Both the position numbers and the translations under genes were made by a program. 64,000 nucleotides of DNA from Alphaproteobacteria bacterium (GTDB lineage Bacteria > Pseudomonadota > Alphaproteobacteria > SP197), in the NCBI GenBank assembly GCA_965207785.1, contig CBDBNO010000010.1, forward strand, positions 202,108 to 266,107, written 5' to 3'. The notes beneath the pieces were generated by a model, which saw only the letters and a program-made list of their open reading frames with translations, was not told where the DNA came from and searched no databases. Shown here piece after piece: positions 18,622 to 20,118 of the stretch (the stretch's first letter is position 1; every line of letters begins with the position of its first letter).

Positions 18622-20118
18622 CTACTGCAGTTCGGCACCAAAGGCGGCGGTGAGATCATTGCGCTCCAGAACTCCGGCGACAGCCTCGTGTCCTGGTCCG
18701 AAGAATCCACCATCCAGAATGCCGGAGTCGTCATTTGGTCCGGGGCGGTAGTTTCCGAAGGCATCGCCGTAGCCTGTGCTTACCTGGATCGTGTAGTGCA
18801 GATCGCCATCGCCCCACACAGTTCCCGTTCCCGGGTCCGATGGCTGTCCCGTCCAGGACTCTAGGCTCGTGAAGTCCACAGTCCCTTCAAGGTCTGCAAG
18901 ATCAAGAGACATATCTGCATCGCCCATGACCGATCGAGCAGAAGGTGTGAAACCGACCAACATTCCCGTCCAGCTCGCACTCCCCGATAGCTTTGGGTTG
19001 TCCCAAATCCAGGTCACAGGTTCCGGGCCCACCGCCCATGGCATGGCGCGACCATTCATCAGACGCACGCCGAAGAGCGTGACGTCCTCCAAGAGCAAAC
19101 TGTCCGGGTGATTCGGCACTGCCAACCCACCGAGGATATGGGTGGCCGTGTCGTCCCACGGCCCAAGGTCAGAGGCCAGCTCGACCAGGGTCGTCCCCGG
19201 CTGGAGTCTGCCGTAGGTCGCCAGCAACATCTCTTGGTCCAATTGCGACAGAACGAAAGGGAGACTGTCGTAGCTGTAAGACATGATCGTGTCCGTGCGC
19301 CCGTAGAGGGGAACGGGATGCTCCCGGCCGAGGGAGTGCAGGATCTCATGGACCAGCGTGTCCTCCATTTGAATCCCGCCCGTTTCAACATGAAGGTGAG
19401 CGGGGTGATTCGGGTCGATCCAGATCGGAGCGGTTCGAATTGAACCATCTGGACCGAAGTCTCGTCTCCACGACGCACCCAGCACGGCAACGCTTGTTCC
19501 TTCCTGCCAATCGGCAGGCCACAGGCCACGAGGCGCAAATGAGATGAAGATCTCGCCAGGTGCTTCGGTATTGCTGCCTGCTGGAGCAGGCTGGGAGTCG
19601 AAGCCTATCTGCCAGTCGGGCGGCAAGGCCGTATTGATCATCTGAACCGCGTAGCGCACGTCGTTGATCAGATAGTCGGGAGTACCGTGAGCCACCCTGA
19701 CTGTCGGAGGCTCCCTCCAGCGGTCTATATGGCCAACGCCTTCTCGGATGTCGTCCTGCAGTTCCGAAAGAAGGGTGCTACGTCCAACGCCAGGACTGTC
19801 GATCCCATAGGCAATCTCGATGCTGTCGTATGTGCCGACAGCCGAGCCGACGACAGTGTCGGGACGAACAATGGCATCACCTCCAACGAAGTAGTAGCCG
19901 GGCAAACCACTGCCCTCAAGAACAGCAAGGTCTGTGTATGGGAATCCGGTTGGTGACTGACTGGCGGCCGTCGGGACGACCGGCTTTGTCGACTGTGGGG
20001 GCGCAACGGGCGTCGTGGGATCCGTCGTCGGCATGTTCATGGTGGATGGGCCGCCGCCGCCGCCACAGGCAGCAATCGACAGCATGGCGGCAGAAGCCGC
20101 GATCATTCGCAATGTCAT
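18622..20118 (-). CDS. Surface lipoprotein: N-terminal metzincin-type zinc metalloprotease domain fused to a C-terminal TbpB-like handle/beta-barrel domain
   Basis: Signal peptide with lipobox IAAC. HEILHSLGREH (HExxHxxGxxH). The C-terminal LDGGFFGPGHEAVAGVLE matches the GxFYGxxAxExGGxF signature of TbpB/fHbp-like lipoprotein barrels. Confidence 0.7.
   Translation of the reverse strand: MTLRMIAASAAMLSIAACGGGGGPSTMNMPTTDPTTPVAPPQSTKPVVPTAASQSPTGFPYTDLAVLEGSGLPGYYFVGGDAIVRPDTVVGSAVGTYDSIEIAYGIDSPGVGRSTLLSELQDDIREGVGHIDRWREPPTVRVAHGTPDYLINDVRYAVQMINTALPPDWQIGFDSQPAPAGSNTEAPGEIFISFAPRGLWPADWQEGTSVAVLGASWRRDFGPDGSIRTAPIWIDPNHPAHLHVETGGIQMEDTLVHEILHSLGREHPVPLYGRTDTIMSYSYDSLPFVLSQLDQEMLLATYGRLQPGTTLVELASDLGPWDDTATHILGGLAVPNHPDSLLLEDVTLFGVRLMNGRAMPWAVGPEPVTWIWDNPKLSGSASWTGMLVGFTPSARSVMGDADMSLDLADLEGTVDFTSLESWTGQPSDPGTGTVWGDGDLHYTIQVSTGYGDAFGNYRPGPNDDSGILDGGFFGPGHEAVAGVLERNDLTAAFGAELQ

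Follow-up and report, generated by a model that had tools for sequence, protein, structure and literature searches.

Cargo of the Slam (DUF560) outer-membrane proteins, that is, of the type 11 secretion system (T11SS), has so far consisted of binders: of transferrin, lactoferrin, haem and factor H, together with adhesins and metal-binding proteins. An 8-stranded barrel is common to all predicted Slam cargo (PMC5449769), and the cargo is kept unfolded by Skp, is recognised via a C-terminal specificity motif and folds outside the cell (PMC9090332). A recent catalogue of T11SS cargo holds about ten architectures (TbpB-like, LbpB-like, two hemophilin-like, fHbp-like and Pls-like, two with disordered N-termini, and surface proteins of Psychrobacter and of Sphingomonas), with no protease or other enzyme among them; the same paper notes that the T11SS of marine Rhodobacteraceae is rarely accompanied by recognisable barrel cargo. 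Here we describe a gene for a 498-amino-acid lipoprotein, apparently a protease on a barrel of this kind, in a stretch of 64,000 bp from an uncultured alphaproteobacterium (assembly GCA_965207785.1, contig CBDBNO010000010.1, positions 202,108 to 266,107). This whole stretch is called the window below, and all coordinates without a locus name refer to it.

Catalytic domain, barrel and predicted lipid anchor

The complete coding sequence of the lipoprotein runs from bp 18622-20118 on the minus strand (open reading frame (ORF) listing), with an ATG start codon, a Shine-Dalgarno sequence AGGAG 7 nt ahead of it, and its stop codon at 18622-18624. From the N-terminus onwards the protein consists of a lipobox, a tether, an N-terminal extension, a matrixin-like catalytic domain, and a C-terminal handle with an 8-stranded barrel. 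A search of 5.8 billion proteins yielded 87 homologs at E<=1e-3, ranging from 95% down to 25% identity, almost none of which had a name or a Pfam domain; the conservation counts given below are from an alignment of 88 homologous sequences. The ratio of non-synonymous to synonymous substitutions (dN/dS) against three orthologs was 0.10-0.14 when the whole protein was compared, 0.09-0.15 within the catalytic part and 0.07-0.10 within the barrel, and by this measure both halves of the lipoprotein are under purifying selection. Because of this ratio and the conservation of its motifs, we consider the ORF a real gene under constraint and not a chance ORF.

The catalytic domain with its linker helix (residues 135-322; bp 19153-19716, minus strand) was delimited by profile and Foldseek comparison and resembles the M10-like metzincins. 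It contains the zinc motif HEILHSLGREH (residues 257-267; bp 19318-19350, minus strand), comprising H257, E258, H261, G264 and H267 and followed by Pro268, and the Met-turn TIMSYS with Met279 (residues 277-282; bp 19273-19290, minus strand), which aligned with the ALMSP of stromelysin-3. When the window is translated in all six frames, the pattern HExxHxxGxxH is found only once, inside this ORF. Nearly all homologs keep it (H257 and E258 in 86 of the 88, H261 and H267 in 85, G264 in 81), some relatives having one additional residue before the third His, and D294 is kept in 81 of 88. At position 279, 56 of the homologs have Met and 30 have Leu.

A search of the PDB with the single lipoprotein sequence gave no significant match. 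The family profile matched the catalytic domains of matrix metalloproteinases (MMPs) in the PDB with E-values of 1.8e-6 to 1e-3 (stromelysin-3, 1.8e-6; MT1-MMP, 2e-5; karilysin, with 0.025, came lower), in an alignment that covers the zinc motif, the Met-turn (ALMSP on TIMSP) and the last helix. For an AlphaFold model of residues 45-322, with a predicted local distance difference test (pLDDT) of 84, the best Foldseek matches were MMP-7, MMP-3, MMP-1, MMP-8 and MMP-14, at template modelling (TM) scores of 0.56-0.62 and probabilities of 0.99-1.0, with astacins and fragilysin ranking below them; the fold matched is a twisted five-stranded sheet with three helices. Pfam PF00413 (Peptidase_M10) gave no match to the lipoprotein at E<=1 and matched 10 of the 88 homologs at E<=0.01. 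Because of the missing PF00413 match, the domain is called matrixin-like here and is not filed as a matrixin. A cysteine-switch propeptide (PRCGxPD) is not present in the protein, whose only cysteine is that of the lipobox, Cys18.

It could be argued that the MMP-like domain is a pseudo-enzyme that serves as a ligand-binding 'handle', as the lobes of TbpB or fHbp do. About 10 of the 84 family members at related loci do lack HExxHxxGxx(x)H, some tandem-module proteins keep the motif in one module only (e.g. at locus L075), and all known T11SS cargo are binders and not enzymes. In the window protein, however, no catalytic residue has been lost, between 81 and 86 of the 88 homologs retain the three His, the Glu and the Gly, and the dN/dS of the catalytic part is low, as given above. 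We regard a non-catalytic binder as highly improbable; since both the catalytic residues and the constraint on them have been retained, an active enzyme is to be expected.

The C-terminal TbpB-like lobe (residues 323-498; bp 18625-19152, minus strand) was delimited from the strands assigned by DSSP in the model and from Foldseek. In the model, three strands of these C-terminal 175 residues form a handle-like sheet and the eight strands that follow form a barrel. The sequence GGFFGPGHEAVAGVLE is found at residues 470-485 (bp 18664-18711), and the protein ends in ...GGFFGPGHEAVAGVLERNDLTAAFGAELQ. With the AlphaFold2 model of the full-length protein, built with the family alignment (pLDDT 86, predicted TM score 0.85), the top 50 Foldseek matches in the PDB were all to hemophilin, TbpB, LbpB, NHBA, fHbp or HphA, with probability 1.0, E-values of 1e-5 to 2.8e-7 and TM scores of 0.69-0.71 to the barrel of NHBA. 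Of these, hemophilin, TbpB, LbpB, fHbp and HphA are recognised Slam/T11SS cargo. In the C-terminal domain, a large number of Gly, Trp and Phe residues are conserved in at least 90% of the 88 homologs.

Sequence profiles reach this barrel less readily. Pfam TbpB_B_D matched residues 462-496 with E 0.14 and 13.2 bits (cut-off 26), and the NCBIfam model slam_lipo ('Slam-dependent surface lipoprotein') matched residues 414-496 with E 0.0016 and 18.8 bits (cut-off 80). Among the 88 homologs slam_lipo matched 43, all below its threshold (best E 2.3e-10), and TbpB_B_D matched three. On the Nitrospirales chromosome of locus L044, the gene directly upstream of a family member (9377-10411) encodes a barrel-only lipoprotein of 345 amino acids, which scores 39 bits with TbpB_B_D (cut-off 26) and E 3.5e-12 with the family profile. 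At the level of sequence comparison, this protein is a transitive link from the family to the TbpB barrels, and it suggests that there is other Slam-type cargo outside the Proteobacteria.

The N-terminus is basic, then hydrophobic, and ends in the lipobox L-S-I-A-A-C of a type II signal peptide (residues 1-18; bp 20065-20118, minus strand), as read from the sequence, with IAAC at residues 15-18 (bp 20065-20076). Cys18, the predicted lipidation site judging by the motif, is conserved in at least 90% of the 88 homologs, and a lipobox-like motif was seen in 66 of the 84 family members at related loci. Model pLDDT and composition define a disordered tether rich in Gly, Pro, Thr and Ser (residues 19-60; bp 19939-20064, minus strand): residues 1-43 mostly have a pLDDT <50, the values then stay at 50-67 until residue 60, and the 42 residues of the tether include six Gly, ten Pro, eight Thr and four Ser. 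It begins with GGGGG directly after the predicted lipidated Cys, in agreement with the family consensus CGGGG(G).

Between tether and catalytic domain lies a family-specific N-terminal extension (residues 61-134; bp 19717-19938, minus strand), delimited by secondary structure and the pLDDT of the models, in which it forms a β-hairpin and a helix packed against the catalytic domain. These residues have no structural match. The Foldseek alignments to MMP catalytic domains of 157-174 residues cover no more than 175-193 columns of the N-terminal model, which has 278 residues, and therefore probably do not reach the extension. It could be a prodomain-like or exosite element; since it contains no cysteine, it cannot provide a cysteine switch.

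The initial annotation had read this ORF as a lipoprotein in which a metzincin is joined to a TbpB/fHbp-like C-terminal barrel. As an observation this is confirmed: IAAC, HEILHSLGREH and GGFFGPGHEAVAGVLE all lie in the ORF, the third His ligand and the Met-turn both accompany the HExxH region, the family profile and Foldseek both point to MMP catalytic domains, and fold prediction with Foldseek gives an 8-stranded TbpB-like barrel. Its interpretation is supported.

Probable export to the cell surface and the Slam link

In our reading the lipoprotein is probably a surface-displayed, Slam-exported zinc endopeptidase, a reading of which the sequence and the high-confidence structure prediction cover the signal peptide with lipobox, the tether of about 40 residues, the intact active site, and the handle and barrel. 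The protein would be exported by Sec, lipidated at Cys18 and brought to the outer membrane by Lol transport, where a DUF560/Slam outer-membrane protein encoded elsewhere in the genome would recognise the C-terminal barrel. It would then be threaded outward unfolded and fold outside the cell, resulting in an active protease on a long surface tether that would never be active in the periplasm. Because there is no cysteine-switch prodomain, folding only after translocation would be the mechanism of latency.

Since the family is found in sponge-associated consortia, extracellular proteins of the host or the environment are the most plausible substrates; candidates would be the mesohyl matrix, collagen or spongin-type proteins, and host recognition factors. 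That the substrate is a host matrix or recognition protein is a guess from ecology. Cleavage of such proteins could feed the cell or help it to persist, and a similar suggestion has been made for the matrixin-type peptidases of sponge Thaumarchaeota.

The distribution of Slam genes around the family was investigated at 80 loci, which were obtained from GTDB (one genome per species) by a search with a 16-sequence alignment. A Slam gene was present within 10 kb at five of them (L001, L060, L078, L057 and L051), and also at the assembly locus L085. It lies 7.4 kb away at L001, where the family member is an 86% ortholog of the window protein. At L060 it follows downstream after about 160 bp, on the same strand; at L078, on a Binatia chromosome, it is upstream and is followed by two large cargo-like genes; at L085, with a 57% relative on a contig with MobA and Tn3, it lies at 6.2 kb; and the copy at L051 is partial. 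A Pfam scan covering the Slam genes of L001, L060 and L078 gave 77-85 bits with PF04575 (cut-off 22), and all three have the Slam TPR region. The Binatia Slam genes are located at 6507-7868 (L078) and 946-1668 (L051) on chromosome-scale metagenome-assembled genomes (MAGs; OZ241976.1 and OZ219754.1), and the L078 Slam, with 85 bits on PF04575, is 54% identical to the alphaproteobacterial Slam of L001. Five of 80 loci is several-fold above a rough expectation of about 1-2%, an estimate that assumes 2-5 Slam copies per genome, and is suggestive only. In the same data sources the Slam clade had 2592 matches, the best 120 of which were all at least 60% identical; among these best 120, one contig of 1,631,342 bp had both a Slam protein and a family member and a second size match was found at 30,529 bp, although matching contig sizes are a proxy for genome co-occurrence that says little.

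Several observations weigh against export by Slam or against an MMP-like protease on a TbpB-like barrel. The protein scores below the curated thresholds of TbpB_B_D and slam_lipo, Peptidase_M10 does not match the protein itself, and in a third of the homologs Leu takes the place of the Met-turn methionine. No DUF560/Slam gene was found in the 64-kb window, either by tblastn or with a hidden Markov model (HMM) of 121 sequences at E<=10, and only about 6% of the related loci have one within 10 kb. In the MAGs labelled Nitrospirales, Bryobacterales, Thermodesulfobacteriota, Entotheonella and Dehalococcoidia, a Slam gene near the family gene was not seen, and published work describes DUF560 as a proteobacterial family. 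The initial annotation had itself stated that no Slam gene was nearby, which holds for the window with the qualification that some relatives do have one close by. It had also called a protease an unusual cargo, and rightly so: the T11SS cargo catalogue has none, and full-text literature searches for DUF560/T11SS with a metalloprotease or protease domain, and for sponge, symbiont and DUF560, returned nothing relevant.

A rival reading is a protease that is retained at the inner leaflet of the outer membrane, faces the periplasm and acts on periplasmic or envelope proteins, its barrel being a binding or structural module and not an export tag. When Gly or Ser follows the Cys, bacterial lipoproteins mostly end up by default on the periplasmic face of the outer membrane; in addition to the window without a Slam gene, about 94% of the related loci have none within 10 kb, and the family is present in phyla for which T11SS is undescribed. 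On the other hand, the structural neighbours of the barrel are almost exclusively surface-exposed or secreted Slam/T11SS cargo, plus NHBA; Slam genes are adjacent or close at several loci, including those of the nearest orthologs; a long Pro/Thr-rich tether is typical of surface-displayed proteins; and in the periplasm an MMP-like endopeptidase that lacks both inhibitor and prodomain would be hazardous. Distance from a Slam gene is not exceptional either, as in Neisseria the genes of the Slam1 cargo are likewise not adjacent to slam1. Only about half of the Slams (52%) adjoin their cargo gene (PMC5449769). For these reasons a periplasm-facing lipoprotein seems unlikely to us.

Another scenario starts, like surface display, with export by Slam/T11SS, after which the protein would be shed by cleavage of the tether or in vesicles and work outside the cell as a soluble enzyme. 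Besides lipoproteins, T11SS also exports cargo that is soluble (hemophilins), Pls cargo is found in the supernatant after secretion (PMC12282271), and the tether is long, disordered and accessible to proteases. Moreover, 18 of the 84 members at related loci have no recognisable lipobox, a number to which uncertainty about the start codons contributes. We nevertheless consider release quite improbable: the conservation of Cys18 and the lipobox in at least 90% of the 88 homologs argues that anchoring matters for at least part of the life cycle of the protein. Surface display on the lipid anchor, through Slam, is the reading that we retain in what follows.

Family, mobility, operon and leader element

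An exhaustive HMMER search of 1.84 billion cluster representatives returned 2745 proteins at E<=1e-3, of which 1207 had E<=1e-10 and 659 had E<=1e-30. The last figure sets the size of the family at no less than 659 clusters at 50% identity, and neither Pfam nor NCBIfam has a model that covers it. Many genomes have two or more family copies, and tandem arrays occur, with three copies in a row at L062 (9086-14750). Multi-module proteins of 900-1992 amino acids with up to seven matched stretches were also seen (L075, L076 and L064; representatives P0211 and P0213), and some of these, such as that of L075, have the zinc motif in a single module.

All 80 GTDB loci are from MAGs, belonging by label to eight or more phyla. 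Most are Alphaproteobacteria (Rhodospirillales, Defluviicoccus, Paracoccaceae and Micropepsaceae); the other labels are Binatia, Nitrospirales, Bryobacterales, Terriglobia, Thermodesulfobacteriota, Entotheonella/Tectimicrobiota, Gammaproteobacteria (including Porisulfidus) and one Dehalococcoidia bin. The label 'Dehalococcoidia' and some others rest on short binned contigs (11.5 kb for L077, 2.5 kb for L008 and 4.2 kb for L032) and may be binning errors. The APA bins are from Aplysina aerophoba and the SB06xx bins from Ircinia ramosa, Porisulfidus has been described as a sponge symbiont, and the MKWU contigs are part of Mediterranean sponge metagenomes. To date the family has been seen in uncultured bacteria alone, and many of these are sponge symbionts; judging from these documented cases and the mix of taxa, the whole family may be sponge-associated.

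Between chromosome-scale MAGs of different phyla, family members share 65-71% identity: a member from Thermodesulfobacteriota (OZ220712) with one on an alphaproteobacterial contig of 3 Mb, a member on a gammaproteobacterial chromosome with one from Micropepsaceae, and Nitrospirales with alphaproteobacterial members. The window protein, by comparison, is just 33-41% identical to most alphaproteobacterial members. The high identity across phyla argues for horizontal transfer, a claim based on chromosome-scale contigs only. The members of L008, L032 and L044, labelled Pseudomonadales, Tectimicrobiota and Nitrospirales, are even 88-92% identical, with two of the contigs being only 2.5-4 kb long; this reflects either very recent transfer or mis-binning.

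Several relatives are located on or near mobile elements. An 84% ortholog (L084) lies beside genes for a Rep3 replication initiator, a ParA-like protein and IstB on a contig of 8941 bp (ENA ERZ28669063, ctg107657), which is probably a plasmid. The 57% relative of L085 is on a 97-kb contig with MobA, Tn3 and several transposases, the 86% ortholog of L001 lies inside an island with integrases, and a 74-77% ortholog (L002) is flanked by transposases. In the window itself, the G + C content is 0.54-0.61 across 18.5-22.5 kb, compared to 0.64-0.69 on the flanks. The lipoprotein operon lies in this patch (18500-22500) together with a small lipoprotein ORF and a TIM-barrel gene; neither direct repeats nor a tRNA bounding the patch were found. 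Nucleotide similarity to the orthologs extends from about 25 nt past the stop codon to about 70 nt before the start codon and resumes at a leader element, described below. The mobile unit would consist of leader, a gene for a secreted protein of 204 amino acids, and the lipoprotein gene, situated in a chromosomal patch of lower G + C content.

The lipoprotein gene is convergent to argJ, in a neighbourhood of secA, ppiC and argJ. The small lipoprotein ORF of the patch (21241-21555, plus strand; 104 amino acids) has a lipobox-like GALAC followed by Asp-Asp and no known domain, and a gene for an AbiEi antitoxin-like protein (22541-23227) adjoins the patch. About 18 kb from the lipoprotein gene, a large serine recombinase of 794 amino acids with Resolvase, Recombinase and Zn-ribbon domains is encoded at 38419-40803 (minus strand), which hints at another mobile element in the window.

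Judging by ORF and spacing, the lipoprotein gene forms an operon with the gene upstream of it (20144-20758, minus strand), which ends 25 nt ahead of the lipoprotein start. Neither a sigma-70-like promoter nor a terminator turned up between the two in consensus scans. The product is the 204-amino-acid protein mentioned above, with a signal peptide, no known domain and no Pfam match. At L002 a copy with 67% identity is present directly upstream of the ortholog and has an internal stop codon, and at L001 mere remnants are left; the gene is therefore linked to the lipoprotein gene and apparently dispensable. For the same reason, a role of the 204-amino-acid protein as an obligate inhibitor or chaperone partner was rejected.

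A structured leader of about 130 nt (20801-20932, minus strand) is located 42 nt upstream of the first start codon of the operon and is better conserved than the coding sequence after it. Its invariant blocks are GAAUAGAACAG and GGCGAAYAGGCGGGG. The closing stem of 15-17 bp varies in sequence with its complementarity kept: cognate flanks reached -22 to -29 kcal/mol in 11 of the 15 cases, compared with -10.3 +/- 3.8 when the flanks were mismatched. Four inner helices are present as well. In a covariance-model alignment, which leans towards its model, 85% of cells were paired, versus 34-51% in slid controls, and double changes were found at eleven pairs, versus 5.2 +/- 1.5 in shuffles. The copy in the window has a folding z of -4.9.

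With covariance model R1, 18 convincing copies of the leader were detected; they come from 1.7 Mb of related DNA and from contigs of sponge metagenomes, and the MAGs among these sources represent several phyla. The copies are on the same strand as the callable downstream gene and mostly 40-50 nt before its start, which has a good Shine-Dalgarno sequence; the genes preceded are family lipoproteins (at L069, in Binatia, and at L077, L062, L081 and L090) or other signal-peptide proteins. One such copy at L077 precedes the gene for a secreted protein of 282 amino acids full of GGxGxD (RTX-like) repeats (2380-3228, minus strand) and is divergent from the copy before the family lipoprotein of that locus. 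The leader is usually followed by a hairpin GGCCCGGC-N4-GCCGGGC, reaching to about 20762 in the window. An arm of this hairpin could pair with the 5' strand of an inner helix, which would resemble the expression platform of a riboswitch.

Rfam 15 has no family matching the leader at E<=1, and a match to IRES_Bip (17 of 40 bits, inside coding sequence) was dismissed as chance. An integron attC site and a miniature inverted-repeat transposable element (MITE) were also considered, but the constant orientation at 40-50 nt before start codons and the conserved core favour an RNA leader. We regard the element as a candidate new cis-regulatory RNA; it may also have a role at the DNA level, for instance as a cassette boundary.

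Taken jointly, these data would allow a wider picture, which we put forward only tentatively and as rather doubtful in its entirety. In it, a mobile surface-MMP module would have spread horizontally through the consortia of marine sponges, across at least eight phyla; it would be exported by Slams that have likewise moved outside the Proteobacteria, would cut host matrix or recognition proteins and, in part of the family, would be controlled by the leader as a new riboswitch-like RNA shared with genes of other exported proteins.

Comparison with known systems and significance

If the lipoprotein is exported as proposed, its protease passenger would show that the barrel tag can bring enzymes to the cell surface, and would represent a new class of T11SS cargo. 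Export in an unfolded state would then explain how an MMP-like protease without a prodomain does no harm before it has left the cell. With DUF560 genes on Binatia chromosomes, T11SS reaches beyond the Proteobacteria. The family apparently extends both the cargo range and the host range of type 11 secretion. It is large and has no curated model; since it appears limited to uncultured consortia, many of them documented sponge symbionts, and bears clear signs of transfer between phyla, it is a candidate for a symbiosis factor directed at the host matrix and for a marker of gene flow in sponge microbiomes. The leader RNA is a separate lead to the regulation of such surface proteins.

As a protease, the window protein is closest to the MMPs (MEROPS M10A), including karilysin of Tannerella forsythia. 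It shares with them HExxHxxGxxH, the Met-turn, the C-terminal helix with a conserved Asp, and the fold of a five-stranded sheet with three helices. It differs from them in lacking the PRCGxPD prodomain and a hemopexin domain, in the extension of 75 residues that the family has of its own at the N-terminus, and in the Leu that a third of the family has at the Met-turn. The pattern HExxHxxGxxHP ... (S/T)xMSY of the window protein is also like what we take to be the extended signature of the serralysins (M10B), but the Pro and the SY are not kept in the consensus of the family. No RTX match to the lipoprotein was found in Pfam or NCBIfam, a C-terminal type I secretion signal is absent, and the C-terminus is a TbpB-type barrel. 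A serralysin was rejected on two grounds: an RTX β-roll is missing, and MMPs, not serralysins, are the structural neighbours.

Lipid-anchored surface proteases as such are a known concept, represented by SslE/AcfD (M60-like, type II secretion) and by NalP, a lipidated autotransporter serine protease. Their protease folds and export routes are unrelated to those of the window protein, and weak matches to SslE/AcfD occurred only in the low-complexity N-terminus of the lipoproteins (NCBIfam, one of the 88 homologs; PDB 23px, profile positions 49-119).

With the Slam/T11SS cargo TbpB, LbpB, fHbp, HpuA and hemophilin/HphA, and also with NHBA, the window protein has in common the lipobox with a Gly-rich flexible tether, the handle and 8-stranded barrel ending in ...GxFxGxxxExxGxx...AAFGA..., and, in some of its relatives, a DUF560/Slam gene that is adjacent or near. 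It is set apart by scores under the curated family cut-offs and by a window without a Slam gene. The passengers of known cargo are β-rich ligand-binding handles or lobes, disordered regions or helical repeats, whereas that of the window protein is an MMP-like protease; and known cargo comes from Proteobacteria that are animal pathogens, whereas the family described here belongs to uncultured, apparently sponge-associated bacteria of many phyla. The window protein is thus most likely a Slam-type cargo lipoprotein with an MMP-like protease as its passenger, which would extend the known kind of cargo.

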